From Verrucomicrobiota bacterium (lineage in GTDB: Bacteria > Verrucomicrobiota > Verrucomicrobiia > Limisphaerales > UBA11358), in NCBI GenBank assembly GCA_049510295.1, contig JBEKZC010000005.1, positions 17,546 through 81,545 on the forward strand: DNA of 64,000 nucleotides, read 5' to 3'. Under the pieces are notes generated by a model. The model ran no database searches, was not told where the DNA came from, and saw only the letters and a program-made list of their open reading frames with translations. A program made the translations under genes and the position numbers. Positions within the stretch are counted from its first letter, which is position 1, and the number at the start of each line of letters is the position of its first letter. Shown here one piece after another: positions 1 to 61,628 of this stretch.

Positions 1-1703
1 GCAACGCGAGCCACGAAACGAAAATTGATGCGAGAGAATTAAAATTGGGTGACGACACGATTGAGTTCATGAATCAGGGCATCGCGGACGCTCATACTGT
101 CATCATTCTCTATTCCCAGCACACCCCGAAGGCGAAATGGCAAAATCTCGAAATCAAATCGGCCGTCTGGAACGAGGTTGCACAGTCTGGAGGTGTGTGC
201 ATCGTTGTGAGGCTTGACGATTCGGCAATTCCACCTGTTCTTGGGCCTAAAGTGTATGGAAAGCTGAACGCGGCTGACCCAAGTTCCTATCGAAAGCTAT
301 TGGAAGATTTGTGCGGCGCGATTCTGCCGGGGAAAACTGCTTCTTCGCTGGTATCGGAAGCATTCAAATGTGAATCAACCAATCCGTTCCGTCGCGTCCG
401 GGCCGAGTATTTTGAAGATCGGCCTGACTTGCTGGCAAAAACATTTGCTCCTCCCGATGCGCTGAAACAGGGGGCGCTTGAAGAAATGAAGCCGTGCTTC
501 CTAGAGGGTTCGCGCGGGACTGGCAAATCAATGCTGTTACTCTCCCTCCGAGCGCGTAACTTTCTTTCGCGTCATAAAGGAAATAGCAAGCTGGTCAGCC
601 GTTATGCAACCAATGCCAAGAGCATTTTAGACCCATTTTGCGGGTCGGGGGCAGTTCTTGTTGCGGGGAGTCGAAACGGAATTCCCACGACAGGTATTGA
701 TGTGAATCCGATTGCAGCCTTGCTATCTCAGGTCAAACTCGCCGGGTTTTGTTTGAAAAATGCAATGGCGCTTGCAGACGAGCTTGTGCAAACAGCCCGC
801 AAGACGAAACGGACACTCCCCATTCAATGGGCGGCCAAAGGCTACTGGTTTACTCCGGCCACGTTGGATAAATATGAACGGCTTCGAGCAGCGAGTCTTA
901 ATCTTGCGCTGAACCAAACGAGTGAGGGCATGGCTGTGCTTCTGTCTTTTGCATTATCTGTTCGGCTTTGTTCCAAAGCCGACCAGCGTAGCCCAAAGCC
1001 GTTCATCTCAAAACTGGCAATTGCGCGTCGCAAAGGTAAGCATTTTGACCCCTATCAGATAATCCCGGCCCTTTTGACAGACTTGGGCGAGGCTTACGGC
1101 CCGAACTCTGGTCAAAATAGTTGCCGTTTTTTGTTAGCTGATATGGCTTCCGATGCATCGATACCACGCTTAGTCGGAAAGCACTCGCATGTAATTACAT
1201 CACCGCCCTACATCAATGCACAGGACTACTTTCGGAATTTCAAACTTGAGTTGAATCTACTTGAAGGGGTACTACCTTTTCAAGTGGGCGACCTGCAGGA
1301 GTGCTTCATCGGTACAGAGCGGGGCGATCTCCTCGCGGGCATTTCACTCAAACAAATCCAACAACAGCGTGAACGTGTGCCTCAGATAAAAGCACTCGCT
1401 CGAAAAGCTCCTCGATCAGAAGCAGTTGTCCACCGATACCTGCACGATATGGGGAATGCGTTTGATACCATCCAGAAATGTTTGGAGTACAAAGGCACTT
1501 TCGTGTTGGTCTGCGGAGATAATCTCATCGGAGGATTGCGCATCCGCACTTGGCAACTCCTGACTAATATGCTTGTCGAGCGCGGTTTCAAACTCTTCGA
1601 CACGTTCACTGACCGAATCGAGGACAGAATGCTTGCACCGAAGCGGTGCGGTCACAAAGGACTGATCAAAGAAGAGGTCATTTTGGCTTTTCGATCCAAC
1701 TGA
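1..1703 (+). CDS. TIR-like domain / Walker-A stub / amino-DNA-methyltransferase chimeric protein (5' end off window)
   Basis: The frame is open from nt 3, with no stop before the listed TTG at 45, so the N-terminus lies outside the window. The N-terminal ~95 aa look TIR-like (DTIEFMNQGIADAHTVIILYSQHT..KWQNLEIKSAVWNE..CIVVRLDDSAIPPVL). A P-loop follows (FLEGSRGTGKSMLLL) with no Walker B after it. Next come MTase motif I (ILDPFCGSGAVLV) and, ~190 aa later, motif IV (VITSPPYINAQDY), then a V/VI-like FVLVCGDN. GC looks lower than in the neighbours. Confidence 0.6.
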   Translation, partial: NASHETKIDARELKLGDDTIEFMNQGIADAHTVIILYSQHTPKAKWQNLEIKSAVWNEVAQSGGVCIVVRLDDSAIPPVLGPKVYGKLNAADPSSYRKLLEDLCGAILPGKTASSLVSEAFKCESTNPFRRVRAEYFEDRPDLLAKTFAPPDALKQGALEEMKPCFLEGSRGTGKSMLLLSLRARNFLSRHKGNSKLVSRYATNAKSILDPFCGSGAVLVAGSRNGIPTTGIDVNPIAALLSQVKLAGFCLKNAMALADELVQTARKTKRTLPIQWAAKGYWFTPATLDKYERLRAASLNLALNQTSEGMAVLLSFALSVRLCSKADQRSPKPFISKLAIARRKGKHFDPYQIIPALLTDLGEAYGPNSGQNSCRFLLADMASDASIPRLVGKHSHVITSPPYINAQDYFRNFKLELNLLEGVLPFQVGDLQECFIGTERGDLLAGISLKQIQQQRERVPQIKALARKAPRSEAVVHRYLHDMGNAFDTIQKCLEYKGTFVLVCGDNLIGGLRIRTWQLLTNMLVERGFKLFDTFTDRIEDRMLAPKRCGHKGLIKEEVILAFRSN

Positions 1704-1729
1704 ATAACGATTCAGCCATTTCACCAACT

Positions 1730-1840
1730 ATGATCAAACTTTCCCTTCCCTTCACCGAAGAAAAAATCCGGGCGCTGAAAGTCGGCGACGAGGTGCTGAT
1801 CTCCGGCGTCGTGTCCACCGGGCGCGGAATCGGGGGTTGA
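1730..1840 (+). pseudogene. orphan 5' fragment of the hydro-lyase beta-subunit gene (duplicate of 2885-2981)
   Basis: 97 nt starting exactly at an ATG match 2885-2981 with 9 mismatches. It encodes MIKLSLPFTEEKIRALKVGDEVLISGVVSTGRG, then diverges and stops at 1840. Confidence 0.85.
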
Positions 1841-1844
1841 AAAA

Positions 1845-2324
1845 ATGGAATCAGTTTACATTGAGACGAGTGTGGTGAGTTATCTGGCGGCGCTGGCCAG
1901 CCGGGACTTGATTGTTGCGGGACATCAACAGGTGACGCGTGACTGGTGGGAGAATCGCCGCGCAAAATTCACATGTTTCATTTCGCATGTCGTGCTGGAT
2001 GAGGCGCGGGACGGAGACGCGGCGCAAGCGGCGTTGCGCTTGCAGGCGCTGGAAGGCTTTCCCAAGCTGGCGGCGACGCCCGAAGCCGAGCGGCTGGCGG
2101 TGGCTTTTCTGCAGGGTGTTCTGCCGGTAAAAGCAGCACGGGATGCCGCCCATCTGGCAATTGCCACGGTTGGCAAGGTCAAGTATTTATTGACATGGAA
2201 CTGCAATCATCTGGCAAACGCGCAGATTTTGGATCGGCTTGAGCCGATTGTCACAGCCGCCGGCTTCAAACTGCCAAGAGTTTGCACTCCGGAGGAATTA
2301 ATGGGAGTTTCAAGGTATGAATGA
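1845..2324 (+). CDS. PIN-domain (VapC-like) putative toxin
   Basis: 159 aa. The N-terminus is YIETSVVSYL and the C-terminus is YLLTWNCNHLAN, typical of PIN/VapC-family proteins. Its stop overlaps the next ORF by 8 nt. Confidence 0.7.
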   Translation: MESVYIETSVVSYLAALASRDLIVAGHQQVTRDWWENRRAKFTCFISHVVLDEARDGDAAQAALRLQALEGFPKLAATPEAERLAVAFLQGVLPVKAARDAAHLAIATVGKVKYLLTWNCNHLANAQILDRLEPIVTAAGFKLPRVCTPEELMGVSRYE

Positions 2325-2529
2325 CGATCCGATTGTAGAAGAAGTGCGACGCGTTCGAGATAAACTGGCGCGCCAGTTTAACTACGATATCCACGCCATT
2401 TTCGCCGACTTGCGAACGCGCGAGCGCGTGGAGGACCCGGCTCATCCTCTCGTGAGGGACGCAAGCGAATGGGCGGAAAGCCGGGAAAACGCACTGGTGC
2501 TCCGCGACCAGCCTAAACCGAAGGGCTAG
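2317..2529 (+). CDS. small protein with a DPIxxE..R.KL module (putative partner of the PIN protein)
   Basis: 70 aa, translationally coupled to the PIN gene. It shares its N-terminal module (DDPIVEEVRRVRDKLARQ) and its C-terminal LVLRDQPKPK tail with the next ORF. Confidence 0.5.
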   Translation: MNDDPIVEEVRRVRDKLARQFNYDIHAIFADLRTRERVEDPAHPLVRDASEWAESRENALVLRDQPKPKG

Positions 2530-2536
2530 AATAGTC

Positions 2537-2866
2537 GTGACAGCCGATCCAATTCTTTTGGAACTTGAAGCCGTTAAAGAACGTCTGGCGGCGGAAGCGG
2601 GCGGCGACTCGCGGCGTTTCCTCGATCAGATGGAAGCGTGGGCGGTGGAGCATCCGCACGCCGGGCCGGTGGTGAATTCGCCGGAGGAGTTGCAGGTGCG
2701 ATTACGGGCGCGCGAGGCTGCCGAACCGCCGCCACCGCAGGGCAAGCCGTATCGGGTTTATGATCCGATCATCGCCGAGGTGCATCGGACGCGCGAGAAA
2801 CTCCAGCGCGAGCGGCAGGCCGAAACTTTGATTTTGAAGGACGAACCGCCGCGTAAGAAACATTGA
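2537..2866 (+). CDS. small protein carrying two DPIxxE..R.KL modules (paralogue of 2317-2529)
   Basis: 109 aa. It has ADPILLELEAVKERLAAE at the N-terminus and YDPIIAEVHRTREKLQRE near the C-terminus, and ends LILKDEPPRKK. Confidence 0.5.
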   Translation: MTADPILLELEAVKERLAAEAGGDSRRFLDQMEAWAVEHPHAGPVVNSPEELQVRLRAREAAEPPPPQGKPYRVYDPIIAEVHRTREKLQRERQAETLILKDEPPRKKH

Positions 2867-2884
2867 GGTGGATCAAAGATTACC

Positions 2885-3460
2885 ATGATTAAACTTTCAT
2901 TTCCCTTCACCGAAGAAAAAATCCGGGCGCTGAAAGTCGGCGACGAGGTGTTGATTTCCGGTGTCGTGTTTACCGGACGCGACGCGGTCCACAAGTATTT
3001 GCACGAGGGCGGCAAGCTGCCGCCGGGTGTGAATTTTCGCGACGGGATTCTTTATCATTGCGGCCCGGTCGTGATGAAGCAGGACGACGGTTCTTGGAAA
3101 GCCACCGCCGCCGGTCCGACGACTTCAATTCGCGAGGAGCCGTATCAGGCGCATATCATCAAGGAATTCGGCCTGCGCGGGGTCATCGGCAAGGGCGGCA
3201 TGGGTGACCGGACGCTGGCGGCATGCAAGGAATTCGGCTGCGTGTATCTGCACGCGGTCGGCGGCGCGGCGCAAGTGCTGGCCGATTGCATCAAAAAGGT
3301 GCGCAACGTCTATCTGATGGAAAAGTTCGGTGCGCCGGAGGCCATCTGGGAATTTGAAGTGGCAGATTTCCCCGCCGTTGTCACGATGGACTCGCACGGC
3401 AATTCGCTGCACAAGGAAGTCTTTGCCATGAGCCAGGCGGAACTGGCGAAAAGACTTTAA
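2885..3460 (+). CDS. Fe-S hydro-lyase beta subunit (class I fumarate hydratase C-terminal domain / L(+)-tartrate dehydratase beta type)
   Basis: 191 aa with GPTTSIREEPY and VIGKGGMG..AVGGAAQ motifs typical of the FumA-C/TtdB family. No alpha-subunit gene lies upstream in this window. Confidence 0.85.
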   Translation: MIKLSFPFTEEKIRALKVGDEVLISGVVFTGRDAVHKYLHEGGKLPPGVNFRDGILYHCGPVVMKQDDGSWKATAAGPTTSIREEPYQAHIIKEFGLRGVIGKGGMGDRTLAACKEFGCVYLHAVGGAAQVLADCIKKVRNVYLMEKFGAPEAIWEFEVADFPAVVTMDSHGNSLHKEVFAMSQAELAKRL

Positions 3461-3517
3461 ATAAGGAAACCAAGAGGGCAGGAGAATAATCTCCTCATGG
3501 TTTCATGGATTCCTTAT
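3461..3517 (+). terminator. nested hairpin downstream of the hydro-lyase gene
   Basis: ATAAGGAAACCA (3461-3472) pairs with TGGATTCCTTAT (3506-3517). An inner GGAGAataaTCTCC hairpin sits between them, and an A/T-rich tail (taaaattt) follows. Confidence 0.35.
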
Positions 3518-3559
3518 TAAAATTTGAAATTGCATTCGCGCGTGGCGTATTTATCCCGC
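3517..3559 (-). pseudogene. orphan copy of the last 43 nt (stop + 13 codons) of the lipoate-ligase-like gene
   Basis: ttaaaatttgaaattgcattcgcgcgtggcgtatttatcccgc matches 5679-5721 with 3 mismatches, in the same orientation. Confidence 0.8.
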
Positions 3560-3660
3560 CCCGGAATCACGACGATTCCGAGTTTACTTGTCGTGGTATG
3601 AATTCCATTGCATGCTCGGTTCGGATCGAAACCGCGTGTACGGGCTGATTGTGAATTTCC

Positions 3661-5637
3661 ATGAAAAATATTCGTTGGATGGCAGCAGTTCGCGGGTTGG
3701 CCGTGGCCGGCATGTTTCTTTACGTGTTTTCCCGGTTTGTCCCCTGCAGTTCAGTTGATGATTACCCGATCATTGATGATATTGACAACGCTTGGGCGCA
3801 GGCTCTGCATATTGCCTTCAGCCGGCATTGGCAGTTCGGCCAGGACATTGTTTTTACCTACGGTCCTTGGGGATTCCTAGCCAGAGGCTATTATCCCACG
3901 ACGTATCCGGTTTCCGTGATCGTGTGGGTGATGCTGTCACTGGTTTTTTTATGCGCGGGTTGGCGGCTGGCGTGTCATCTGTCGGACAACCGGCTGTTTT
4001 CCTGGCTCTGGTTGATCGGTTTCACCGGCGTGGCCAGCATTCCGGTCGGGAATGATTTTGACGTCCGGTTGGTTGCCTGGGTTGTGCTGCTGTTGTTCCT
4101 GCATTTTTTTGTGGAGAAAGGCGCGTTCACGGCGACGCAGGCCATGCTGGTGGTGTCACTGGGCTGGTTGAGCCTGGTCAAGTTCACCGGCTTGATGGAA
4201 TCCGTGCTGGTGGTGGCCCTCATTGCGGTGGACAATATCTTCCGTCACCGGCGGTTTCCGTGGATTGTGCCGTTATGGGCGGCCAGTCTGCTGGGCTTTT
4301 GGGTCATGGCCGGACAGCATTTGAGTTCGTTCGGGCCGTACCTGAGCAATTCCTGGCAAATCACCAGCGGTTATACGGAAGCGATGATGCGAACCGGCAG
4401 AACGGAAACCTGGGATGTCAGCGGTTTCCTGTTGCTGGCGGTGCTGCTGTGTACGATGACCGGCGGTGTTGCCTGGGCACGCCTCCGGTTTTGGGGGGCG
4501 CTTCCCCTGGCTGGTTTGGGAGGAACCCTGTTCATCGTTTTCAAACAAGGTTATGTCCGGCAAGACCGGCATGAGGTTGCCGCCGTGATGTCACTTTTGA
4601 TCATCTCTCTGGCGTGTCTGGCGCTGGCCGGGCCGGCAAAGGGGCGAAAAATGAGGCAGGCCCTGCTTCTGTTGGCGGGTTCCGTCCTGATGGCCTCGTC
4701 CGTGTTCGGGTACTGGCTCCCAGGCAATGGGCTGTGGACGCAGTGGGCCGGGACATTCAAACCCAGCAACCTGATGGGTCCAGTCACTGGCGTGTTTACC
4801 GGACATTTGCGAAGTGATTACGAGAAAAATCTCGCGACGATACGGGAGGAATATCCCGTGCCACCGATGAAAGGAGGAGCGGACCTCTATTCCTGTTTTC
4901 AAACCATCCTTTTTGCGCACGGGTTGCCCTATCAACCACGACCGGTCATTCAGAGTTATTCCGCCTACACGCCGGAACTGGCCAGACTGAATGCCGCCCA
5001 CCTGCAGACGGACCGCGCGGCCGGCAATCTTTTGTTTGCGATAGAGCCAATTGACGGTCGTTTTCCCGCATTGGATGATGGTCTTTCCTGGCCGGAATTG
5101 TTGACCCGATACGACCTGCGGGGCACTTCGGACGCCTTGGGAACATATTTGTTCCTGTCGCGGTCGGCGGCACCGCGGGAATATCACCTGACCCCGCTCC
5201 AGGATACGTCGGCCCGTTGGGGAGAACCCGTCACGCCTCCTTCCGCCACCGCCGGTCCGATCTGGGTTGAAATTGAGATAAAAAAAACCCTGATCGGGAC
5301 GGTGGTTTCGGCGCTTTACAAACCCCCGGTGTTGGTGCTGACCGTGTCCCTGCGGGATAACGGGCAACAAGACTTTCGCATGGTTCCCGCCATGGCCCGG
5401 GGCGGATTCCTGTTGTCGCCGGTGATCGGCGACAACCAGGCTTTCGCTGCGCTTGCCTCGGCGGATGGACAACGCGACCTGGCCGGCCAGGAAGTGATGT
5501 CCATGACCGTCCTGGCCGATACCCGATCTTATTCAACGATTTGCTATCAATCGCCGATGGCAGTCCGGTTTTACCGCCTGGATTTTCCCCGGCAGGATTT
5601 CAGAATGGACTGGCCGGTGAAACCAGCGGAACAGTGA
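3661..5637 (+). CDS. large polytopic membrane protein with a C-terminal soluble domain, function unknown (GT-C-like architecture)
   Basis: 658 aa. It has many hydrophobic segments in the first ~400 aa and a ~250-aa hydrophilic C-terminus. No catalytic motif was recognised. Confidence 0.55.
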   Translation: MKNIRWMAAVRGLAVAGMFLYVFSRFVPCSSVDDYPIIDDIDNAWAQALHIAFSRHWQFGQDIVFTYGPWGFLARGYYPTTYPVSVIVWVMLSLVFLCAGWRLACHLSDNRLFSWLWLIGFTGVASIPVGNDFDVRLVAWVVLLLFLHFFVEKGAFTATQAMLVVSLGWLSLVKFTGLMESVLVVALIAVDNIFRHRRFPWIVPLWAASLLGFWVMAGQHLSSFGPYLSNSWQITSGYTEAMMRTGRTETWDVSGFLLLAVLLCTMTGGVAWARLRFWGALPLAGLGGTLFIVFKQGYVRQDRHEVAAVMSLLIISLACLALAGPAKGRKMRQALLLLAGSVLMASSVFGYWLPGNGLWTQWAGTFKPSNLMGPVTGVFTGHLRSDYEKNLATIREEYPVPPMKGGADLYSCFQTILFAHGLPYQPRPVIQSYSAYTPELARLNAAHLQTDRAAGNLLFAIEPIDGRFPALDDGLSWPELLTRYDLRGTSDALGTYLFLSRSAAPREYHLTPLQDTSARWGEPVTPPSATAGPIWVEIEIKKTLIGTVVSALYKPPVLVLTVSLRDNGQQDFRMVPAMARGGFLLSPVIGDNQAFAALASADGQRDLAGQEVMSMTVLADTRSYSTICYQSPMAVRFYRLDFPRQDFRMDWPVKPAEQ

Positions 5638-5678: not shown

Positions 5679-6422
5679 TTAAAATTTAAAATTCCACTCG
5701 CGCGTGGCGTATTTATCCCGCGCCAGAGCAAAAATCTTTTCCGTTAAAAAACCTTTCAATGGTTCTTCCGCCTTCCAGGCCTGTCGTAACGCCGCCTTTA
5801 CTTCATTCGCCGGCATGTTCAAATTGGTCAGAAATTCGGTGTGCGCGCGGTGCTCCCGGTAATCGGGCTGCTTCGATGGCATCGGCAAAAGTTCACCGAT
5901 GAGCGCGAGGCCGGAGTCCAGCAGGAATGTTCCGTGAAAAAGCAGGAAGTGTTTGCGGCGGCGCTGGGAGTTGCCGGAAAATTTGCGGTCGCCGATGGCG
6001 AGATCGGTGTGACCGCGCACGGCAATTTCGGGTCTTGGGTCCCGGCTCCTGGATTTGGGCAAGAGGCTTTGCATCGCCGCGCGGTTGCGTTCCATGATGA
6101 ACTGGTTGGCGATGCTGATGCTGTGGAGTGGGCCGTCGGCGGTAATTCGCAGAACCAGCGTGTAGTTGAGGCAGCCGGGTCCTTGCACCACGGTGCCCCC
6201 GCCGGAACAGCGTCGCAGAACCGGGATGCCGCGCGTTTCGCACGCCGCGACGTTCACTTCTGCCGCCACCTTGTTCGCGTAGCCGACGACGACGAAAGGT
6301 TCGCGCGGTTCCCAGAAACGCAGCACCTCGTCGCCGGCACCGGTTTCCGCGGCGTCGAGCAGCACCTCGTCGCCGGCCAGGTTTTCGGCGGGCGAGGGGA
6401 GCGTCAGATCGAGTAATTTCAT
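5679..6422 (-). CDS. lipoate-protein ligase / octanoyltransferase family protein (BPL_LplA_LipB domain)
   Basis: 247 aa with LRFWEP..PFVVVGY...RRCSGGGTVVQGPGCLNYTLV. It is divergent from aceE, which fits the function. Confidence 0.8.
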   Translation of the reverse strand: MKLLDLTLPSPAENLAGDEVLLDAAETGAGDEVLRFWEPREPFVVVGYANKVAAEVNVAACETRGIPVLRRCSGGGTVVQGPGCLNYTLVLRITADGPLHSISIANQFIMERNRAAMQSLLPKSRSRDPRPEIAVRGHTDLAIGDRKFSGNSQRRRKHFLLFHGTFLLDSGLALIGELLPMPSKQPDYREHRAHTEFLTNLNMPANEVKAALRQAWKAEEPLKGFLTEKIFALARDKYATREWNFKF

Positions 6423-16582: not shown

Positions 16583-16658
<76 letters not shown>

Positions 16659-19257: not shown

Positions 19258-19302
19258 CTGAAAATCCTTGTGTCGGCGGTTCAATTCCGCCCCCAGCCAC
19301 CA
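19258..19302 (+). repeat. duplicated 3' 45 nt of tRNA-Phe (attR-like)
   Basis: ctgaaaatccttgtgtcggcggttcaattccgcccccagccacca is identical to 16614-16658. Confidence 0.95.
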
Positions 19303-25273: not shown

Positions 25274-25412
25274 GTACAGCGGTATACCAGATAATGGACG
25301 GATGCCCGCAAAGTCGGGACAGCCTATCCAGTTTCATGTGCCAACCCTATTTCCGTCGTCCGTGGCTGTCCAGAATGATTTTGGTTCAACGCGCCACCTC
25401 ACCCTGAATCTC

Positions 25413-25518
25413 GTAGCCGCGGACGTCAGTCCGCGCCAAAATAATTCTGGGAAAAGACTTCCAAACCGGGAAGTTTGCGCCGACTGATGTCGGCGGCTAC
25501 GGTTCAGGAATTCAACGC
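25413..25518. repeat. GTAG-type REP doublet (REPIN-like), family 1b, intergenic copy
   Basis: GTAGCCGC-GGACgtcaGTCC-GC ... GCGCCGACtgatGTCGGC-GGCTAC followed by GGTTCAGGAATTCAACGC. It has the same ends as the copy inside tsaD. Confidence 0.85.
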
Positions 25519-25650
25519 TCGCCTTTTTTTGTTGCGGCGTTTTTTCTACCTGAAAAACGGCTGGTGGCGGTAACTTGCGTTCCGTGATTGCGGGCAAAGT
25601 TTTCCCTGATATATTCAGGGCGTCCCTTCGTAAGGGGCGGATTTTTTTAC

Positions 25651-27048: not shown

Positions 27049-28935
27049 ATGCGTTACTGCGAATCCCCGTTTTTCCATCACCGGCGAAAGACCCGCGAAG
27101 TCGTCATCGGTGATCCGGCGCGTGGCGGGGTCATCATCGGGGGCGACCATCCCGTCGTGAAGCAGTCCATGCTCACCTGCGACACGATGGATACCGCCGA
27201 ATCCGTCAAACAGACGCTCGATCTCGTTGCCGTCGGCTGCCAGCTCGTCCGCATCACCGCGCCAACCGTGAAGGACGCGGCGAACCTGCAGAACATTGTT
27301 GCCGAGCTGCATAAACGCGGCTGTTTCGTGCCGATTGTGGCGGACATCCATTTCAAGCCGGAAGCGGCGATGGAAGCGGTTAAGTGGGTTGAGGTCGTGC
27401 GCGTCAATCCCGGCAATTACGCCGACTCAAAGAAATTTGCCATCAAGGAATACACGAACGAGCAATATGCCGCCGAGTTGAAGCGCATTGAGGAAAAATT
27501 CGCGCCGCTCGTGCTGGAATGCATCCGCCTGAAACGCTGCCTGCGCATCGGCACCAACCACGGCTCGTTGAGCGACCGCATCATGAATCGCTATGGCGAC
27601 ACGCCGCTCGGCATGGTGGAGAGCGCGCTGGAATTCGCCCGCATCTGCCGCCAGCACAACTTCCACAATTTCAAGTTCTCGTTGAAGTCGTCGAATCCGA
27701 AAGTGATGATCGAGTGCTACCGGCTGTTGGTGGCGCGGCTGGAACAGGAAGGGCCGGATTGGAATTATCCGATTCATCTCGGCGTCACCGAAGCAGGCGA
27801 GGGCGAGGATGGTCGCATCAAGAGCGCCATCGGCATCGGTTCGCTGTTGTGCGACGGCCTGGGCGACACGATTCGCGTCTCGCTCACGGAGGATTCGCCG
27901 CGTGAAATCGAAGTCTGCACCGATTTGCTGGCGCAGATTCCCCATCTCACACTTTCGGAAGGGCGAGTTCCACGAGCCCCCAATTCAAAATGCGAAAAAA
28001 GTTTGGGGCTCGCGGAACTCGCCCCTCCGAACTCTTTTCCGTTCGACCCGTTCCACTTCGAGCGTCGCAAAACACCGGAAATTGAGCTGGTTGACGGCGT
28101 GAAATGCGGCGGCGAACAGCTCATCCGCGTGGTCGTCACCCGCGCCACGTGGGACAAGGTGGCTCCGAAGATTCGGCCCAAGGATGACGTGAAACCGGAA
28201 GCGGTCTATGAAGACCTGAACATTGCCGAGATTGACCCCACCAAGGATTTTGAAATCAACTGTGAGACGCAACTTGTCACCGTGAAGGACGGCGTAAACC
28301 TGCCGGCCATCACAGCGTTTCGTTTGCTGGCTTTGAAACTGAAGCGGCTCGGACGCAACAATCCGATTTTGCTGAAGGACTGCCTGGAGTTTGGTAGCCG
28401 CCGCCGTGAGTCGGCGCAAAACTCACCCGCGAAGGAAGGTGCGCCGACTGACTTCGTCGGCGACGAAGTTCTTGAACCGAAAATCGCTCTGCTGCGGGCA
28501 TCGGTGGTCATTGGTTCGTTGCTGGCGGATGGCGTTGGCGACGCAATTTTGATTCGCGGCGAGGCCGGTGGCGGACAATCACTGCGGCTGGCTTACAACA
28601 TTTTGCAGGCGGCGGGTTGCCGTTCGTTCAAGACCGATTACGTGGCGTGTCCGTCATGTGGGCGGACGCTGTTCAATCTTCAGACCGTCACCGCGCGCAT
28701 CAAATCGCGCACGGAACATCTCAAGGGCGTGAAGATCGCGATCATGGGTTGCATCGTGAACGGCCCGGGCGAGATGGCCGACGCGGATTTCGGCTACGTG
28801 GGCGGCGCGCCGGGCAAGATCAATCTTTACGTTGGCAAGCAAGCCATCAAATTCAACATCCCCGAAACCGAGGCCGTGGACCGTCTGGTGGACCTCATCA
28901 AGGAACACAACAAGTGGATGGAGCCGGAAACGTAA
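27049..28935 (+). CDS. ispG: 4-hydroxy-3-methylbut-2-en-1-yl diphosphate synthase, long form
   Basis: VRVNPGNYAD, VACPSCGRT and MGCIVNGPGE. The 628-aa length indicates the insert-domain type. Confidence 0.93.
   Translation: MRYCESPFFHHRRKTREVVIGDPARGGVIIGGDHPVVKQSMLTCDTMDTAESVKQTLDLVAVGCQLVRITAPTVKDAANLQNIVAELHKRGCFVPIVADIHFKPEAAMEAVKWVEVVRVNPGNYADSKKFAIKEYTNEQYAAELKRIEEKFAPLVLECIRLKRCLRIGTNHGSLSDRIMNRYGDTPLGMVESALEFARICRQHNFHNFKFSLKSSNPKVMIECYRLLVARLEQEGPDWNYPIHLGVTEAGEGEDGRIKSAIGIGSLLCDGLGDTIRVSLTEDSPREIEVCTDLLAQIPHLTLSEGRVPRAPNSKCEKSLGLAELAPPNSFPFDPFHFERRKTPEIELVDGVKCGGEQLIRVVVTRATWDKVAPKIRPKDDVKPEAVYEDLNIAEIDPTKDFEINCETQLVTVKDGVNLPAITAFRLLALKLKRLGRNNPILLKDCLEFGSRRRESAQNSPAKEGAPTDFVGDEVLEPKIALLRASVVIGSLLADGVGDAILIRGEAGGGQSLRLAYNILQAAGCRSFKTDYVACPSCGRTLFNLQTVTARIKSRTEHLKGVKIAIMGCIVNGPGEMADADFGYVGGAPGKINLYVGKQAIKFNIPETEAVDRLVDLIKEHNKWMEPET
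28394..28465. repeat. degenerate family-1b REP doublet inside the ispG reading frame
   Basis: gtagccgccgccgtgagtcggcgcaaaa...ggtgcgccgactgacttcgtcggcgacg aligns with both ends of the 25413 element. GAGTCGGCGCA/TGCGCCGACT form a stem. It is translated as ..SRRRESAQNSPAKEGAPTDFVGD.. Confidence 0.55.
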
Positions 28936-40836: not shown

Positions 40837-41970
40837 ATGACGGTTCTTGCCCTTGAAACTTCCTGTGACGAAACCAGCGCCGCCGTTGTGCGCGACGGCA
40901 GGGTTTTGTCCAGCACCGTTTCCTCGCAAATCAAGTTGCACGCCGAATACGGCGGCGTCGTGCCGGAACTTGCCGCCCGCGAACATCTGCGGAATTTGAT
41001 TCCCGTCGTGCAAACCGCGTTACGCGATGCGGGTGTGCCGCCGGGACAACTCGACGCTGTTGCTGCCACGCAAGGACCGGGTTTGCCGATGGCCTTGCTC
41101 GTCGGATTCAAAGCGGCGCAAGCCGTCGCGTTTGCCTTGCGGAAGCCATTCATGGGCATCAACCATCACGAAGCGCATTTGTATTCACCCTGGATTTCTC
41201 AACAACCAGTGCCACTCCCTGTAGCCGCGGACGTCAGTCCGCGCACTTTAAGTTCAATGAAAGTCAGCGCCGACTCATGTCGGCGGCTACGGTTCAGGGA
41301 CTCAATGCGCGGAATTTTCTTTGCCGACTTTGCCGCCTTTCAACCAAACGTTTCGCTCATTGTCAGCGGCGGGCACACGATGCTCGTGCGGGTGGAATCC
41401 GAATTGAAACATCGCGTGCTCGGTTCGACGGTGGACGACGCAGCGGGCGAATGTTTCGACAAAACCGGCAAGCTCATGGGGCTGCCATATCCCGCCGGAC
41501 CGGAAATTGACCGGCTGGCAGAGCAGGGGAATCCCAAGGCGTATCATTTTCCGCGACCTTTGCTTAATGACCCCGGTGACGACTTCAGCTTCAGTGGCTT
41601 GAAAACCTCCGTGCGCTATTTTCTCCGCGATCATCCGGGGATTTTGGATGACGCGCAACGGGTGCGCGATTTGTGCGCCAGCATCCAGGCGGCGATTGTC
41701 GAGGTGCTCGTGAAAAAAACCATCCGCGCGGCGAAGCGAAACCACGTCCGTTGTGTGACTGCCTCCGGAGGCGTTACCTGCAATCGCGCCTTGCGTCGCG
41801 AACTGGCGCGCGCGTGCGAGCGTGAAGGTTTAACGCTGCGTCTCGCGGAAAAAAGTCTTTGCACCGACAACGCGGCGATGATCGGCATACTGGCCGAACG
41901 AAAATTGGCGCATCAAATTCCGGCTTCAACCTTCGACGAGGAAATCAAACCTAGCTGGGTTCTTGCTTGA
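40837..41970 (+). CDS. tsaD: tRNA N6-adenosine threonylcarbamoyltransferase TsaD (carries an in-frame repeat insertion)
   Basis: LALETSCDETSAAV, HAEYGGVVPE, GINHHEAHL, VSGGHT, DDAAGECFDKTGK and CTDNAAMI. Confidence 0.93.
   Translation: MTVLALETSCDETSAAVVRDGRVLSSTVSSQIKLHAEYGGVVPELAAREHLRNLIPVVQTALRDAGVPPGQLDAVAATQGPGLPMALLVGFKAAQAVAFALRKPFMGINHHEAHLYSPWISQQPVPLPVAADVSPRTLSSMKVSADSCRRLRFRDSMRGIFFADFAAFQPNVSLIVSGGHTMLVRVESELKHRVLGSTVDDAAGECFDKTGKLMGLPYPAGPEIDRLAEQGNPKAYHFPRPLLNDPGDDFSFSGLKTSVRYFLRDHPGILDDAQRVRDLCASIQAAIVEVLVKKTIRAAKRNHVRCVTASGGVTCNRALRRELARACEREGLTLRLAEKSLCTDNAAMIGILAERKLAHQIPASTFDEEIKPSWVLA
41221..41310. repeat. GTAG-type REP doublet, family 1b, in frame inside tsaD
   Basis: gtagccgcggacgtcagtccgcgc...gcgccgactcatgtcggcggctac + ggttcagggactcaatgc. 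It shares its ends with the intergenic copy at 25413. It is translated as VAADVSPRTLSSMKVSADSCRRLRFRDSMRG. Confidence 0.85.
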
Positions 41971-41989: not shown

Positions 41990-44683
41990 ATGGCTGACCG
42001 TTTGCCCATTTACGAAATCGAGCGCGACATCGTCGTCCGGCTGAAAGCCGGCCGGCGGCTGATTTTGTCCGCGCCGACCGGTTCCGGCAAATCCACGCAG
42101 GTGCCGCAGATGCTGCTCCGGCACGGACTGCTCGGCGACGGGCAGGTGGTGATTCTTCAGCCGCGCCGGCTGGCTACGCGGTTGCTCGCGTCGCGCGTGG
42201 CGCAGGAACTCGGCGTCCAGCTTGGCAACGAAATCGGCTACCAAATCCGCTTCGAAAATGTCACGTCGCCGCAGACGAAAATCCGTTTTGTGACGGAAGG
42301 CGTTTTGTTGCGGCAGATGATTGACGATCCAAAGCTGCGCGGCGTTGCCGTCTTGATCTTCGACGAATTTCACGAGCGGCATCTTTACGGCGACATCACG
42401 CTGGCGCGCGCACTGGATTTGCAGGAGCAGCACCGGCCCGACCTGAATCTCATCGTCATGTCCGCCACGCTCGATGCAGAGTTGCTGGAGGATTATCTTT
42501 CCCAATGTAGCAGCGGACGTGAGTCCGCTCATTCTTCTTCGGCGGAAAGTCAGAGCCGACTCACGTCGGCTGCTACAAATAATTTTCGCTGCTCCATCCT
42601 TTCCTCTGAAGGCCGGGTGTTCCCGGTTGAAATCAAATATGCCGCGGAGCCGGGTTACACGGGCAAACGCCCGGTTTGGGAACAGGCTGCCGAGGCCTTC
42701 AGCCACTACGTCGGCTCCGGTGGGGAAGGGGACGTGCTGGTGTTCATGCCGGGAGGTTATGAGATTTCGCAGACCATCGAGGCCATCCGGCACACTTCGG
42801 AGTCGAAAGGTTTTATTTTGCTTCCGTTGCACGGTGAACTTTCGCCCAAAGACCAGGACGCCGCAGTGGCGCGTTACGGTCAGCGTAAAGTGGTCGTTTC
42901 CACCAATGTCGCCGAGACCTCGCTGACCATTGACGGCATCCGGCTGGTGATTGACAGCGGGCTGGCGCGCATTCCGCGTTACGATCCGTATCGCGGCATC
43001 AATACGCTGCTCATCGAAAAGATCAGCCAATCGTCCGCCGACCAGCGCACGGGTCGGGCGGGTCGCACCGTGCCGGGTGTTTGCATGAGGCTTTGGTCGC
43101 GGGAGGAACATGGACATCGGCTGGTTCAGGAACTGCCCGAAATCAAGCGGCTTGATCTGGCCGAAGTGGTGCTCACGCTCAAAGCCGCCGGGGTCGAAGA
43201 TTTGCGGAAATTCCGCTGGCTCGAAAAGCCGGACGAAATTTCGCTCACCCATGCGGAGGAATTGTTGCTGGATTTGGGTGCGCTCCAACGTAGGACAGGC
43301 GTCCCGCCTGTCTCCAATCAATTTCCCGCTCAAGCGCAACAGAAAGTTGGAGACAGGCTGGAAGCCTGTCCTACGTTAATAACCTCCATCGGCTGCAAGA
43401 TGCTCGCCTTTCCGCTACATCCGCGCTACTCGCGCATGTTGCTCGCGGCGCAGGAATACGGCTGCGTTCATCAAGCCTGCCTCGTTGCCGCGCTCACGCA
43501 GGGGCGCGATTTGCTTTTGCGGAATGTGGACCGCGACACGAATTCGTTCCGTGAGGATTTGCTCGGCGACAAGCCGTCGTCCGACTTCTGGATTCTCATG
43601 CGCGCGTGGACTTATGCGGCCAAAAACCAATTCCGCCTCGACGCCTGCCGCCGGCTTGGCATCCACGCCGTGACCGCGCGGCAGGTCGGGCCGTTGTTCG
43701 AACAGTTCCTTCGCATCGCCAAAGATGAAGGTCTCGATGTAAAAGCACGGGAAGTGAAAGATGATGCTTTGCAAAAGTGCATTCTCATCGGGTTTTCCGA
43801 CCGCGTGGCGCGCCGGCTCGACCAGGGCACACTCCGTTGTGAATTGGTTCATAATCGTCGCGGTGTGCTGGCGCGTGAAAGCGCCGTGCAACACAGTCCC
43901 TTGTTCGTTGCCGCCGAAGTCCGCGAAGTCGAGGGCAGGGAAGTGAACACCATTCTTTCCCTGGCCACCGCCATTGAAGTGGACTGGTTGCGCGAACTGT
44001 TCCCCGAAGACATGGAGTCGGATTTGCATGTCCAATTCGATTCAACGGCAAAACGGGTGCAAGCTGCGGAATTGTTGAAGTTTCGCGGCTTGGCGTTGTC
44101 GGCCAAACGCGTTGAACCGCCGCCGGCCGACATGGCGGCACGATTGCTGGCCGATGAGATAATTGCCGGACGATTGCCGTTGCCGAATTGGGATCACAGT
44201 GTCGAGCAATGGCTGTTGCGGCTGCGCCTGCTTTGCCAGCATTGTCCCGAGCTCCAGCTTCCGCCCATCACCGAAGATGACCGCAAGCACATCATCGGGC
44301 AGCTTTGCCACGGCGCGGTGAGCTACAAGGACATCAAGGAACGTGAAGTAAAACCGGTCGTGATGTCGTGGCTGTCCGAGGCGCAGCGCGGGTTGCTGGA
44401 CAAGCACGCGCCGGAGCGGTTGACGCTGCCAAACGGCCGCACGCCGAAGGTCGCTTACGAGGCAACCGGCTTGCCGCATATTTCGTTGCGCATCCAGGAG
44501 CTTTACGACGTGACCCAGACGCCGAAGATTGCGCTGGGGCGCGTGCCGGTGCTGGTCCACATTCTGACCCCGGGCATGAAGCCGATCCAGATTACACAGG
44601 ACCTGACCAGTTTCTGGCGTGAGCACTATCCGCGCATCAAATCCGAGTTGCAGCGGAAATATCCGAAACACCTGTGGCGATGA
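41990..44683 (+). CDS. hrpB: ATP-dependent RNA helicase HrpB (DEAH box; carries two in-frame repeat insertions)
   Basis: APTGSGKST, FDEFHERH, MSATLD, VVSTNVAETSLTI, QRTGRAGR and a C-terminal HrpB-type domain. The start was chosen at the ATG at 41990. Confidence 0.9.
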   Translation: MADRLPIYEIERDIVVRLKAGRRLILSAPTGSGKSTQVPQMLLRHGLLGDGQVVILQPRRLATRLLASRVAQELGVQLGNEIGYQIRFENVTSPQTKIRFVTEGVLLRQMIDDPKLRGVAVLIFDEFHERHLYGDITLARALDLQEQHRPDLNLIVMSATLDAELLEDYLSQCSSGRESAHSSSAESQSRLTSAATNNFRCSILSSEGRVFPVEIKYAAEPGYTGKRPVWEQAAEAFSHYVGSGGEGDVLVFMPGGYEISQTIEAIRHTSESKGFILLPLHGELSPKDQDAAVARYGQRKVVVSTNVAETSLTIDGIRLVIDSGLARIPRYDPYRGINTLLIEKISQSSADQRTGRAGRTVPGVCMRLWSREEHGHRLVQELPEIKRLDLAEVVLTLKAAGVEDLRKFRWLEKPDEISLTHAEELLLDLGALQRRTGVPPVSNQFPAQAQQKVGDRLEACPTLITSIGCKMLAFPLHPRYSRMLLAAQEYGCVHQACLVAALTQGRDLLLRNVDRDTNSFREDLLGDKPSSDFWILMRAWTYAAKNQFRLDACRRLGIHAVTARQVGPLFEQFLRIAKDEGLDVKAREVKDDALQKCILIGFSDRVARRLDQGTLRCELVHNRRGVLARESAVQHSPLFVAAEVREVEGREVNTILSLATAIEVDWLRELFPEDMESDLHVQFDSTAKRVQAAELLKFRGLALSAKRVEPPPADMAARLLADEIIAGRLPLPNWDHSVEQWLLRLRLLCQHCPELQLPPITEDDRKHIIGQLCHGAVSYKDIKEREVKPVVMSWLSEAQRGLLDKHAPERLTLPNGRTPKVAYEATGLPHISLRIQELYDVTQTPKIALGRVPVLVHILTPGMKPIQITQDLTSFWREHYPRIKSELQRKYPKHLWR
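42507..42576. repeat. GTAG-type REP doublet, family 1a, in frame inside hrpB
   Basis: gtagcagcggacgtgagtccgctc...agagccgactcacgtcggctgctac. It is nearly identical to the intergenic copy at 48116-48184. It is translated as CSSGRESAHSSSAESQSRLTSAAT. Confidence 0.9.
43287..43376. repeat. GTAG-type REP doublet, family 3, exactly 90 nt, in frame inside hrpB
   Basis: AACGTAGGACAGGCgtcccGCCTGTCTCC ... GGAGACAGGCtggaaGCCTGTCCTACGTT. A partial copy lies at 46607-46636. It is translated as QRRTGVPPVSNQFPAQAQQKVGDRLEACPT. Confidence 0.85.
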
Positions 44684-47806: not shown

Positions 47807-48115
47807 AATTTAAAACGCGGAAAGATTACGAACGGGGCGGGGGAGCGCAAGAAAGGAAATTTGTTTTAACACCCGCCCTCACCTGTTTCCTCTCCCCCGG
47901 GAGAGGACATGCCGATGATGAATTTCTGTTTTACGAATAACCGTTCGGCCAATCCAGTCGCAGGTCTTTCAATGAGACGGCGAATGATTCTCCTTCTCCT
48001 TCCGTCTTCGCTTCGCTTCGACGCGACTATAAATTTGAACTGCGCCGTAGCCCGGCGTAGGCGGGTGGGGAGAAGGCCGGGATGAGGGAGGCCGTGAACA
48101 AATTCAGGTATTGAT

Positions 48116-48184
48116 GTAGCAGCGGACGTGAGTCCGCTCATTCACATCCGGCGAAAGTCAGAGCCGACTCACATCGGCTGCTAC
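48116..48184. repeat. GTAG-type REP doublet, family 1a, intergenic copy
   Basis: gtagcagcggacgtgagtccgctcattcacatccggcgaaagtcagagccgactcacatcggctgctac. Confidence 0.9.
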
Positions 48185-48195
48185 AAGTCATTACC

Positions 48196-59522: not shown

Positions 59523-59903
59523 TCACAACCTCACGGACTTGCGCGGGACGCGATTTGGCCGGGACGATTTTTGAGACTTCTTGCTGTGGGCGGCGATTTG
59601 AATCGCACGGTGCGCCCATGCCACCAGTTCTTCCCGGTTTTCCAGCACGTCCGGCGGCACTTCGTGATAACCCATCGTCATCACGCGCCCCTTCATCTCG
59701 TAGGTGAACGGCGGCATCCCACGCGCCGTGTAATCCGCCTGCGACTGCGCGTCCGTTTTGAAAAACAGCCGGCCCTCGTCCAAAATCCCGAAGAACCGCC
59801 CGCCGGAATATAACCCATGCGCGCCGAACATCGCCTTGGCATGCACGTCCGGCAGCGCGCTTAACTGGTCGAGCACAAATTCTTTGAAGGAGTCGTCAGG
59901 CAT
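59523..59903 (-). CDS. TfoX N-terminal-domain protein
   Basis: MPDDSFKEFVLDQL...KAMFGAHGLYSGGRFFGILDEGRLFFKTD. Confidence 0.8.
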   Translation of the reverse strand: MPDDSFKEFVLDQLSALPDVHAKAMFGAHGLYSGGRFFGILDEGRLFFKTDAQSQADYTARGMPPFTYEMKGRVMTMGYHEVPPDVLENREELVAWAHRAIQIAAHSKKSQKSSRPNRVPRKSVRL

Positions 59904-60220: not shown

Positions 60221-60232
60221 TAGACAGTTGTT

Positions 60233-61279: not shown

Positions 61280-61285
61280 CCAAAC

Positions 61286-61627: not shown

Positions 61628-61628
61628 A

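Follow-up and report, generated by a model that had tools for sequence, protein, structure and literature searches.

Defence and gene-transfer hotspots carry a variable cargo of toxin-antitoxin and defence genes between core genes, and this cargo turns over by recombination in the flanks. Elements of the SXT/R391 type that sit at prfC bring with them a new 5' coding end for that gene together with its upstream signals, and the old 5' end stays at the other junction; these elements are large, possess their own tyrosine integrase and have a short identical core. The ends of genes are also moved aside in the polymorphic toxin systems. Circular intermediates have been proposed for displacement of the C-terminal ends of Rhs genes (Jackson et al. 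2009, PMC2935791) and illegitimate recombination facilitated by homology has been proposed for the effector-immunity arrays of the T6SS (Kirchberger et al. 2017, PMC5361080).

We find that, in the Limisphaerales (Verrucomicrobiota), the class I fumarate hydratase operon has at its alpha-beta junction a hotspot for genes of horizontal origin. It resembles the defence hotspots in that its cargo is variable, lies between two conserved genes, and is absent from some relatives and present in others. However, this hotspot falls within an operon, where a spacer of 12 nt separates the genes for two subunits of the same enzyme, and the insertions have left behind a readable series of orphan copies of the start of the beta gene. 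The locus shares with SXT/R391 a replacement 5' end that appears to be imported and an old 5' end that is kept at the other junction; in contrast, the unit is just 1 kb in length, has no integrase and is bracketed by a diverged repeat of 97 nt.

The fumarate hydratase locus and its cassette proteins

The window, by which we mean the whole 64,000-nt stretch of DNA that was analysed, opens within this locus (Table 1). The fumarate hydratase has two subunits and the genes are arranged in the order alpha, TIR-methylase, orphan, PIN-p70-p109, beta. The alpha-subunit gene, reported to be absent in a preliminary description of this DNA, is in fact present on the same strand as the Fumerase_C beta gene, just beyond the left edge of the window. 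The same description had recorded a 97-nt duplication of the 5' end of the beta gene starting at its ATG, bracketing DNA that encodes a PIN protein and two small proteins, and had noted that every mismatch between the copies has G/C in the orphan and A/T in the gene. All of these observations hold. The copies align without gaps and are identical at 88 of 97 positions; the nine mismatches (seven C/T, one C/A and one G/A) are at repeat positions 6, 15, 16, 67, 72, 78, 86, 87 and 93, and the bracketed DNA contains three co-oriented open reading frames. Similarity begins at the ATG, with only 'AC' common to both copies on its 5' side. The 50-nt perfect core (positions 17-66) gives the pair the appearance of attL/attR-like direct repeats with an identical core. 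Constraint on this core at the nucleotide level was considered and rejected: synonymous diversity among species across codons 9-22 is 0.29, not unusually far below the gene mean of 0.37, and equally low values occur in other segments of the gene.

The structure almost certainly does not stem from faulty assembly or from the merging of strain variants into a chimera. Mis-assembly had been raised as a concern, but 11 contigs that come from independent samples and different assemblers (JGI, ENA) are identical to the window across positions 1-3460, and analogous structures are found in dozens of metagenome-assembled genomes (MAGs), including long-read assemblies of more than 1 Mb.

The TIR-methylase gene is an older insert, placed between the alpha stop codon and the orphan, and the same arrangement of gene, spacer and orphan is seen in L040. 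Its product matches the Pfam domains TIR_2 and N6_N4_Mtase and a fragment of an ORC-CDC6-like domain, and PADLOC assigns residues 235-596 to MTase_II. The 8-nt sequence 'TTTCACCA' is present after the alpha stop codon and again ahead of the orphan ATG, and may have been left by the TIR-methylase insertion as a microhomology or a duplication.

The 159-aa protein PIN_A is predicted to adopt the PIN/VapC fold, a Rossmann-like alpha/beta/alpha sandwich. Its AF2 model has a pLDDT of 92.4 and the top Foldseek matches are VapC20, VapC15, VapC11 and other VapBC structures (probability 1.0, TM 0.53-0.69). No Pfam or NCBIfam model matched the PIN_A of the window; PF01850 was matched by 7 of its 28 homologues (best E=8e-6), and some homologues are named VapC family toxins by NCBI. 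Residues E7, E53 and D100 are invariant in the 28 homologues and were matched by eye to the four acidic active-site positions usual in PIN domains; the fourth position was placed, also by eye, within an invariant T117-W-N-C-x-H122 motif, where Asn is found instead. The p70 gene overlaps that of PIN_A by 8 nt and follows it in all eight contexts examined, the putative toxin coming first in the module; neither p70 nor p109 matched known antitoxin families. The PIN-p70(-p109) unit would be read, from its sequence, as a toxin-antitoxin module. Because p109 partners a different PIN allele (PIN_B) in relatives, it is probably a partner gene that was retained when its PIN_B was displaced.

The 36-codon reading frame that begins in the orphan stops so close to the PIN start that it is probably translated as a leader, coupling the expression of PIN to that of the operon. 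A stop-to-ATG spacing of 3-4 nt also occurs in L023, L051 and L094, despite different junction positions. In-frame leaders were also sought in 'promoter-type' cassettes, where only about five of ten were in frame, not clearly above chance, and the coupling claim is therefore restricted to the PIN and DUF4230 cassettes. Neither promoter-like nor terminator-like sites were found on the + strand in positions 1-3460, and no known RNA families were found. The cassette would be expected to be co-transcribed with the fumarase operon.

Table 1. Features of the fumarate hydratase locus, in window coordinates
Feature	Position	Strand	Basis or remark
Alpha subunit, PF05681, 292 aa	stops 122 nt before window position 1; lies 1,850 nt 5' of orphan ATG	+	source contig annotation, profile
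TIR + type II DNA-methylase fusion, 601 aa; 3' 1,703 nt in window	1..1703	+	ATG 103 nt left of window
Spacer of TIR-methylase cassette; replaces native 12-nt 'GGAGA...' alpha-beta spacer of empty sites	1704..1729	+
Orphan copy of beta codons 1-32, apparently the displaced former 5' end	1730..1826	+	nearest: native-clade 5' ends L031, L020, L023
Intact 36-codon ORF (orphan plus 4-codon tail)	1730..1840	+	TGA 4 nt before PIN ATG
Left junction and cassette head, 'GAATCGGGGGTTGAAAAA'	1827..1844	+	homologous to heads in L023, L112
PIN-fold VapC-like protein (PIN_A), putative toxin, 159 aa	1845..2324	+	AF2/Foldseek, homologues
p70, 70 aa, putative antitoxin, matches no known family	2317..2529	+	constant downstream partner of PIN_A
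p109, 109 aa, paralogue of p70	2537..2866	+	partners PIN_B in relatives
Cassette-borne spacer, Shine-Dalgarno-like GAGGTG before working beta ATG	2867..2884	+	homologous spacers after p81-p111 genes in L044, L052, L062, L094
Repeat copy at working gene start, apparently the imported 5' end	2885..2981	+	nt 1-90 nearest L043, L036, L032
Class I fumarate hydratase beta subunit (Fumerase_C), intact	2885..3460	+	PF05683, E=1e-56
Orphan copy of last 49 nt of convergent lplA-like gene	3517..3565

The alpha-beta junction in related genomes

We compared 52 related Limisphaerales genomes in which alpha and beta are on one locus. Empty sites, with the two genes 4-25 nt apart and separated by a 'GGAGA...' spacer, were present in 13 of them, so that the proposal of an insertion, which would have been undermined had no relative possessed an empty site, stands. 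The further supposition that there had been one integration event does not, because the site is a recurrent hotspot with cassette arrays. Inserts of 0.5-4.0 kb composed of toxin-antitoxin or defence genes fill the site in 33 of the 52 genomes, and at least one orphan beta start accompanies the insert in 21 of these 33. Overall we found 36 orphan beta starts in 28 genomes. In the simplest cases (L024, L026, L038, L055) the orphan comes directly after alpha with a spacer of the native type, and the orphans are therefore old resident starts. L015, L040 and L051 each have two orphan copies, and in the L112/L111 metagenome contig five toxin-antitoxin cassettes are separated by four orphans that end at nt 97-104. 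The ends of the orphans range from nt 52 to nt 147. Of 31 such ends, 16 lie between nt 96 and nt 107, where all four L112 orphans also end, and another group is clustered at nt 52-67; both clusters adjoin a 'GCGACG' motif and the filler sequences at the junctions are variable across the whole range. Similarity on the 5' side of the ATG was at chance level in all 33 adjacent copy pairs, as expected if each cassette brings its own spacer.

At least 15 unrelated types of cargo occupy the site, among them MazF/PemK, ParE, DUF3368, HEC-01, PD-T4-6-like kinase and TIR proteins, representing toxin-antitoxin systems and candidate defence functions. Cargo with PIN, DUF3368, ParE, MazF or DUF4230 genes has the same junction in common. 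PIN-p70 is not confined to the fumarase operon: it is flanked by repeats of 83-163 nt in five of its eight genomic contexts, which include four other loci (L101, L108, L095, L110) where these repeats are imperfect. In at least two of those loci the repeats are duplicated 3' ends of the upstream gene, Aldedh in L101 and DUF4838 in L108; all differences between the L101 copies are synonymous (0/8 nonsynonymous) and the outer edge of the repeat is at the stop codon. The window contains a second insert of the same kind, a 658-aa gene at 3661-5637 that is bracketed by copies, at 3517-3565 and 5679-5727, of the last 49 nt of the lplA-like gene.

A static explanation for this diversity is that a long ancestral array was inherited vertically and eroded in each lineage by deletions between repeats, with no recent insertion and with the window's cassette fixed. 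The direct repeats would indeed ease deletion, and no recent mobility was seen in the 11 contigs of the window's population. A search of JGI metagenome contigs for an allele lacking PIN, using an exact-match pattern with a variable gap and thus a weak negative, gave no match. Furthermore, divergence between species is about equal for cassette and host genes, with an identity of 91.5% for p109 and 91.7% for alpha. We had considered that cassettes might be much closer between species than are their hosts, which would point to recent transfer, and found a modest excess in PIN_A alone (91.7%, compared with 85.9% for beta). Nevertheless, we regard the static explanation as improbable. Loss alone explains the empty sites but not the range of unrelated cargo, nor the fact that close relatives, with 91-92% nucleotide identity in alpha, have completely different arrays; it also sits poorly with the presence of PIN-p70 at several unrelated loci and with the different affinities of the working 5' end and the body of the beta gene that are described below.

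Origin of the two gene starts and a displacement model

The two copies in the window have a pS of 0.28 and a pN of 0.028, giving a pN/pS ratio of 0.10; the corresponding ratio is 0.16 for functional genes of different species and 0.27 for the other orphan pairs when pooled. Because these values match between-species divergence, the copies appear, from their sequences, to be diverged, orthologue-like alleles and not the products of duplication in situ. This has a direct bearing on target-site duplication, in which a transposon-like PIN cassette would have made staggered cuts about 100 nt apart and one of the resulting copies, the orphan, would then have decayed. The flanking repeats of PIN-p70 in most of its contexts are of a length that suits such a process, but it is very improbable for several reasons. 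Neutral decay would drive the ratio of nonsynonymous to synonymous change towards 1, and the differences here and in L101 are mostly synonymous; the pS equals that between species; and the outer edge of the repeat coincides with a landmark of the reading frame, namely the ATG for 33 of 33 pairs and, for L101, the stop codon, to which a cutting enzyme would be blind. The orthologue-like relationship of its flanking copies likewise sets the cassette apart from transposons and insertion sequences, as does the finding that there are no terminal inverted repeats at its ends.

The two starts also differ in their relatives. The orphan is closest to 5' ends of the native clade, and the first 90 nt of the working gene are closest to those of more distant lineages (Table 1); the differences behind this nearest-neighbour argument number just 2-5 nt in 97, and its resolution is weak. 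Starting at approximately nt 121, the working beta gene is nearest to L015, L034 and L023, the same genomes that are nearest for alpha, and the affinity switches back at approximately nt 90-150. The working 5' end appears to have been imported, since it is closer to distant lineages than is the rest of the gene. These distinct affinities, together with the orthologue-like divergence, support the earlier suggestion that the cassette brought its own replacement 5' end and that the upstream copy is the displaced former start. The idea that the mismatches record a directional process has not survived. In 34 other pairs of orphan and functional starts we counted 212 GC-to-AT and 268 AT-to-GC differences, with single pairs skewed in both directions, and polarisation with outgroups revealed changes on both copies: the orphan C is derived at sites 16 and 86, and the functional T is the minority state at sites 78 and 87. 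A signature of mutation, for instance by deamination, was rejected on the same grounds, there being no general bias and changes having occurred on both lineages. The bias in the window reflects two diverged alleles with different GC3 values, 0.78 in the orphan and 0.59 in the imported start.

We favour, with rather more confidence than doubt, a model of serial displacement in which recombination takes the conserved start of the gene as its anchor. Cassettes lie in the orientation of the operon, the last gene ending 2-20 nt before the beta ATG, and the mobile unit that enters another genome would comprise the cassette, its spacer and the beta start that is attached to it. On its right side the unit would be joined by homologous recombination inside beta. 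On its left side it would be joined further 5', within the resident copy of the segment and mostly near nt 97-105 at 'ACCGGGCGCG', and the resident start would therefore be displaced upstream rather than replaced. The old start would be shunted aside as an orphan and the gene would continue with the imported one. At the locus in the window, the TIR-methylase cassette would have entered first, between alpha and beta, and PIN-p70(-p109) would then have displaced the beta start that lay behind it. A bracketed cassette could spread or be lost by ordinary RecA recombination with no need of its own recombinase, whether by a double crossover with the orphan and beta as homology arms or through an excised circle. 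The recombination route would be either an illegitimate or microhomology joint or a circle followed by homologous recombination. The model does not extend to the landing of a first cassette in the 12-nt spacer or at the ORF boundary of other loci. In addition, random illegitimate joining would be expected to give junctions less tightly clustered than the 16 of 31 at nt 96-107, and this clustering could reflect a site-specific step.

Both clusters of junctions, with their shared 'GCGACG' motif, are also in keeping with an integron-like site-specific system in which the first 100 nt or so of beta would be an attachment site and a recombinase encoded elsewhere would move circular cassettes at about nt 97-105. 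We consider such a system unlikely while acknowledging its attractions. As in integrons, the cassettes are compact, co-oriented and without recombinase genes, toxin-antitoxin modules are frequent among them, up to five occur together, and the repeats between them, at approximately 60-140 nt, are of attC-like length; the regularity of the five-cassette L112 array and the use of the same junction by unrelated cargo add to the likeness. However, no intI lies next to the array. The repeats duplicate coding sequence, the last of them being the start of a working gene, and they lack the hairpin-forming character of attC sites: when the two copies were folded as DNA on either strand, no hairpins were seen, with z-scores of 0.0 to +2.0 relative to shuffled sequences. 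The scatter of other junctions across nt 52-147, with their variable filler, is a further difficulty, and the bracketing of PIN-p70 by the ends of genes unrelated in sequence argues against one sequence-specific site.

The search for mobility genes points in the same direction. In agreement with the preliminary description, the genes called in the source contig (L001) out to 10 kb from the locus in each direction include no recombinase or integrase, and the element itself encodes only PIN, p70 and p109. Integrases were likewise not found in the ORF clusters of the inserts or the scanned cargo proteins. When IMG/VR viral contigs were searched with the core pattern for a phage or plasmid vector carrying the beta start, there was no match, and text searches of the literature for toxin-antitoxin cassettes flanked by duplicated gene ends returned nothing specific. 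That we are dealing with an undescribed integron-like platform, whose recombinase or nuclease is encoded elsewhere, recognises the 'GGGCGCG/ACG' region and draws cassettes of toxin-antitoxin and defence genes into an operon of housekeeping function, is a quite unlikely proposition. Were it true, each cassette would come with a spare gene start and the enzyme would never be lost, and the same machinery would explain the PIN-p70 modules that are bracketed by duplicated gene ends elsewhere.

Likeness to displacement systems and biological meaning

The serial displacement that we propose has its closest counterparts in the Rhs, CDI and T6SS systems. There, as here, the incoming DNA consists of a fragment of a conserved gene together with new cargo, and recombination within this conserved stretch pushes the old unit to one side without deleting it. 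The product is a string of orphans, each with a conserved fragment of variable length, here 36 orphans that end between nt 52 and nt 147 in arrays of two to five copies. No element-borne recombinase takes part, and the proposed routes are the same, namely a circle that undergoes homologous recombination, or illegitimate recombination aided by homology. That p109 was probably retained when PIN_B was displaced recalls the orphan immunity genes that are kept in those systems. The fumarase locus differs from them in being a mirror image, with a 5' end moved upstream instead of a 3' tip moved downstream. Its conserved segment belongs to a housekeeping metabolic enzyme and not to a polymorphic toxin, and the cargo is made up of independent operons, for toxin-antitoxin or defence functions, that are unrelated to fumarase, whereas in those systems it provides alternative domains of one protein.

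These findings describe an accumulation of small toxin-antitoxin and defence cassettes, without a recombinase, in an operon of an essential type. The operon is unbroken, a spare gene start being supplied with each cassette. Inserts would be easy to delete between the repeats, and this may account for the predominance of addictive toxin-antitoxin modules in the cargo. The old starts that have piled up at the junction are a readable record of successive insertions, and an orphan gene end beside an intact copy is a signature that can be searched for and that could reveal other hotspots and new defence cargo in metagenomes. The displacement logic of Rhs, CDI and T6SS would, on this evidence, extend to a housekeeping gene, and to its 5' end, in an uncultured order of Verrucomicrobiota from soil and peat.

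Architecture of the duplicated beta start

The start of the beta-subunit gene of class I fumarate hydratase is present twice, in copies that align without gaps at 88 of 97 positions; the mismatches fall at positions 6, 15, 16, 67, 72, 78, 86, 87 and 93, and the 50-nt core between them is perfect. At all nine the upstream copy has G or C and the downstream copy A or T (seven C/T, one C/A, one G/A), which bears out the repeat and the one-sided mismatches of the preliminary description. The gene order is alpha, a TIR-methylase fusion, a 26-nt spacer, the displaced beta start (the orphan), a cassette of PIN, p70 and p109 genes, an 18-nt spacer containing GAGGTG, and beta. The alpha gene was earlier reported absent, but in the source contigs it is present (PF05681, 292 aa), its stop codon lying 122 nt left of window position 1 and so beyond that reader's view. 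As described before, there is no recombinase gene among those called within 10 kb either side of the locus on the source contig. The mis-assembly that had been considered is ruled out: contig L001 agrees with the window over 12.3 kb without a mismatch, and window positions 1-3460 recur unchanged in ten more contigs, which come from other samples and assemblers.

No promoter-like or terminator-like site was found on the + strand of 1-3460, which fits transcription of the whole locus from the operon promoter. The reading frame of the orphan is unbroken and ends 4 nt ahead of the PIN ATG. A spacing of 3-4 nt between stop and ATG recurs in the PIN cassettes of L023, L051 and L094, whose junctions lie at three different positions, as well as in L026 and L049, and this suggests that PIN translation may be coupled to the old beta start. 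In the fusion protein upstream, a TIR domain is joined to a short P-loop fragment of ORC/CDC6-like type and to a type II DNA methylase that is nearly complete. The methylase part has a counterpart in L040 (86% amino acid identity) with a different N-terminus in front of it. The fusion gene may serve in defence, or it may be a chimera made by recombination. An 8-mer, TTTCACCA, occurs just past the alpha stop and just before the orphan, and therefore brackets the fusion gene; it could represent microhomology, a short duplication or chance.

Features of the window (window positions unless a contig is named)
Feature	Position	Strand	Remarks
8-mer TTTCACCA	L001 8044-8051; 1719-1726		5-6 nt before ATG in both places
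TIR + type II methylase fusion gene, 601 aa	..1703		between alpha and orphan; starts 103 nt left of window (L001 8054-9859; window part 1-1703)
Orphan beta start	1730-1826	+	upstream repeat copy; opens 36-codon ORF 1730-1840
PIN ORF, 159 aa	1845-2324		between repeat copies; co-oriented with p70 and p109
p70 ORF, 70 aa	2317-2529		between repeat copies; co-oriented
p109 ORF, 109 aa	2537-2866		between repeat copies; co-oriented
Intact beta gene (Fumerase_C)	2885-3460	+	E=1e-56; starts with downstream repeat copy, 2885-2981
lplA-like 3'-end orphan	3517-3565		just past beta stop
658-aa membrane-protein gene	3661-5637		between beta and lplA
lplA-like working 3' end	5679-5727	-	stop-proximal end of gene; 49-nt direct repeat of 3517-3565, 90% identical
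tRNA-Phe and repeat of its 3' 45 nt	16583-16658; 19258-19302		perfect repeat 2.6 kb downstream
REP-like palindromic repeats	25411-25541, 28392-28434, 41219-41331, 42505-42584, 48114-48192		intergenic; GTAGC[AC]GCGGACGT[CG]AGTCCGC
Tandem-repeat region	59853-61631		300-nt repeat, 84% identical (60171-60470, 60744-61043); 55-nt segment three times

The 159-aa PIN protein itself has no Pfam or NCBIfam match; it has more than 2,000 homologues, seven of 28 sampled matched PF01850, and its AF2 model (pLDDT 92) matched VapC toxins at probability 1.0. Because E7, E53, D100 and a T-W-N-C-x-H motif are what is invariant, its active site would be a variation on the usual set of four acidic residues. The p70 and p109 proteins are paralogues in one small-protein family that has no known domain. 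At every locus examined p70 follows the window's PIN type, PIN_A, and proteins of the p81-p111 type follow a second type, PIN_B (about 50% identical to PIN_A), in L023, L044, L052, L062 and L112. Compared with L023, the window is 76-86% identical over the orphan, 90% over the first 40 nt or so of the PIN gene and 88-98% over p109, spacer and beta, but L023 has no p70, and the bodies of the two PIN genes are unrelated at the DNA level; the window cassette thus looks like a mosaic in which PIN_A-p70 would have taken the place of PIN_B while p109 remained.

Resident and incoming starts among relatives

We scanned one genome per species and compared 80 Limisphaerales/Verrucomicrobiota loci with beta 82-97% identical; as these relatives are species representatives, insertion events are not datable. 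Both alpha and beta lie on the retrieved locus in 52. The two genes are adjacent in 13 of these (4-25 nt apart, typically 'TGA GGAGAnnnnnnn ATG'), which supplies the empty site that the cassette reading called for; they are separated by 31-299 nt in six and by an insert of 0.5-4.0 kb in 33. At least one orphan beta start is found in 21 of the 33 inserts, and there are 36 orphans in all, spread over 28 genomes. In the simple cases (L024, L026, L038 and L055) alpha is followed directly by the orphan across a native-type spacer, which shows that orphans are former resident beta starts. Nearly all insert genes, called heuristically, share the strand of the operon, and the final one stops 2-20 nt before the beta ATG. 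The cargo comprises toxin-antitoxin genes and candidates for defence: MazF/PemK, ParE/RelE-like, two PIN types, DUF3368, HEC-01 (AAA_21 + DUF4276), a PD-T4-6-like kinase, TIR proteins, Schlafen/AlbA_2, a STAND-like ATPase and Nmad3. Relatives with alpha 91-92% identical in nucleotide sequence have quite different arrays.

The most integron-like array found is on a metagenome contig (L112 1-5442, equal to L111; PIN_A 92% identical), where four orphans of about 100 nt separate five toxin-antitoxin cassettes in 3.6 kb, at spacings of 840, 1090, 857 and 618 nt. Its order is PIN_B-p109, orphan, 64 aa-DUF3368, orphan, PIN_A-p70-p81, orphan, 96 aa-PIN, orphan, 61 aa-ParE, beta, and the orphans end at nt 97, 104, 100 and 98. 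The first 53 nt of its PIN_B and PIN_A genes share 85% identity, against only about 50% for the proteins. Displacement would also occur at the beta 3' end, since L023 (8701-8820) carries an orphan of the last 40 codons, 95% identical in amino acids, 2.1 kb downstream of the intact gene.

In genomes that lack alpha upstream of beta, a conserved element of about 45 nt, 'TTCAGTTCGCTGGACTTTTGGGCnGGTTTGGATTGAAATGCnnCC', lies right before the beta ATG (L054, L063-L065, L067, L074, L075, L083), and it also precedes orphans in L056 and L078. It is promoter-like (TGGACT, 17 nt, TGAAAT) and ends about 10 nt before the start codon; as a promoter it would give a near-leaderless transcript. Several MAG records (L016, L031, L033, L044, L048, L053, L057, L060, L062, L064, L076, L077, L079 and L093) have a locus with 83-95% identity to the beta protein of Limisphaerales and bear one of the titles Bifidobacteriaceae, Bifidobacterium, Limnocylindrales, Acidiferrales, Aquilonibacter, Sulfopaludibacter or Akkermansia muciniphila; the bins are probably mislabelled or contaminated.

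The two copies in the window differ with pS 0.28 and pN 0.028, a ratio of 0.10, where neutral decay would give about 1; over the same codons the ratio is 0.16 between functional genes of different species and 0.27 for the other orphan/functional pairs pooled. The orphan's two nonsynonymous differences (L6 and S29) are derived, T standing there in 78 and 67 of 80 relatives. The orphan is nearest to native-clade 5' ends (L031 0.97, L020 0.94, L023 0.93), the working 5' end to L032, L036 and L043 (0.95-0.96), and beta from about nt 121 on to L015, L034 and L023, which are likewise nearest for alpha. None of the 33 adjacent copy pairs has related sequence upstream of the ATG. Taken together, these results indicate that the working start arrived with the cassette from another lineage and that the orphan is the start thereby displaced; the low ratio and the differing affinities thus uphold the proposal of a cassette carrying its own replacement 5' end. 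The direction of the mismatches is real in this pair but follows no general pattern: among 34 other pairs, 212 differences have GC in the orphan and AT in the functional copy as against 268 of the opposite kind, and single pairs are skewed either way (L015 1:10, L055 13:4). It is idiosyncratic, two alleles simply differing in GC3 (orphan 0.78, working copy 0.59).

Recurrence at other loci and a proposed route of displacement

Outside the fumarase operon, long and imperfect repeats flank PIN_A-p70 in four of seven contexts (none in L104, L106 or L113). In at least two, it is the end of the neighbouring gene that is duplicated: the final 87 nt of an aldehyde dehydrogenase gene in L101 (92% identical, every difference synonymous) and the final 83 nt of a DUF4838 gene in L108 (95%); those in L095 and L110 measure about 140 and 163 nt. 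The window's 658-aa gene is bracketed in the same manner by an lplA-like 3'-end orphan and its working copy, and there are relatives without the gene. Inserts with a replacement gene end and an orphan thus arise generally in these genomes and are not bound to one target sequence. Only some relatives have the 658-aa gene (L021, L025, L026, L034), and the first three retain the lplA-like orphan.

The window has further repeats. The tRNA-Phe interval is low in GC (0.47) and has genes for a 227-aa protein and a lipoprotein-like protein of 160 aa. It contains no integrase and resembles an islet of the integrase-less kind that occupies a tRNA attachment site. Repeats similar to the REP-like family, 'GTAGCCTCGCGCGAAGGCGGA', surround PIN cassettes in L099 and L100, and the tandem-repeat region probably consists of small paralogous genes in a cluster.

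The data are best fitted by displacement through recombination that is anchored in a conserved gene segment. For Rhs tips, Jackson et al. proposed that homologous recombination excises a circle with a core fragment and cargo, which re-enters by homologous recombination, the old unit being shunted aside (PMC2935791), and Kirchberger et al. described a related route, homology-facilitated illegitimate recombination, for T6SS effector-immunity arrays (PMC5361080); the fumarase case would be the mirror image, at the 5' end of a housekeeping gene. Displacement is favoured by orphan lengths that vary (nt 52-147), by spacers specific to each cassette, by the lack of a recombinase near the locus, and by searches that found neither an attC-like structure in the repeat nor terminal inverted repeats at the cassette ends. 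Orphan ends, placed by nhmmer to about ±5 nt, nevertheless cluster at nt 96-107 (16 of 31 overall, four of four in L112), adjoining 'ACCGGGCGCG', with a second cluster at nt 52-67. Such clustering could come from a hotspot of microhomology, from junctions that share ancestry, or from a site-specific step; a step of this last kind, by an enzyme encoded elsewhere, would explain the clustered ends, and we consider it unlikely. There was no sign of recent mobility: at this locus the population is clonal, an exact-match pattern found no PIN-less allele in JGI metagenome contigs, and the cassette genes are about as diverged as the host genes.

The initial observation is therefore confirmed and its interpretation partly supported. 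The locus is best classed as a variant of cassette accretion of the displacement type, and it is notable for regular multi-cassette arrays within a metabolic operon and for the clustered junction.
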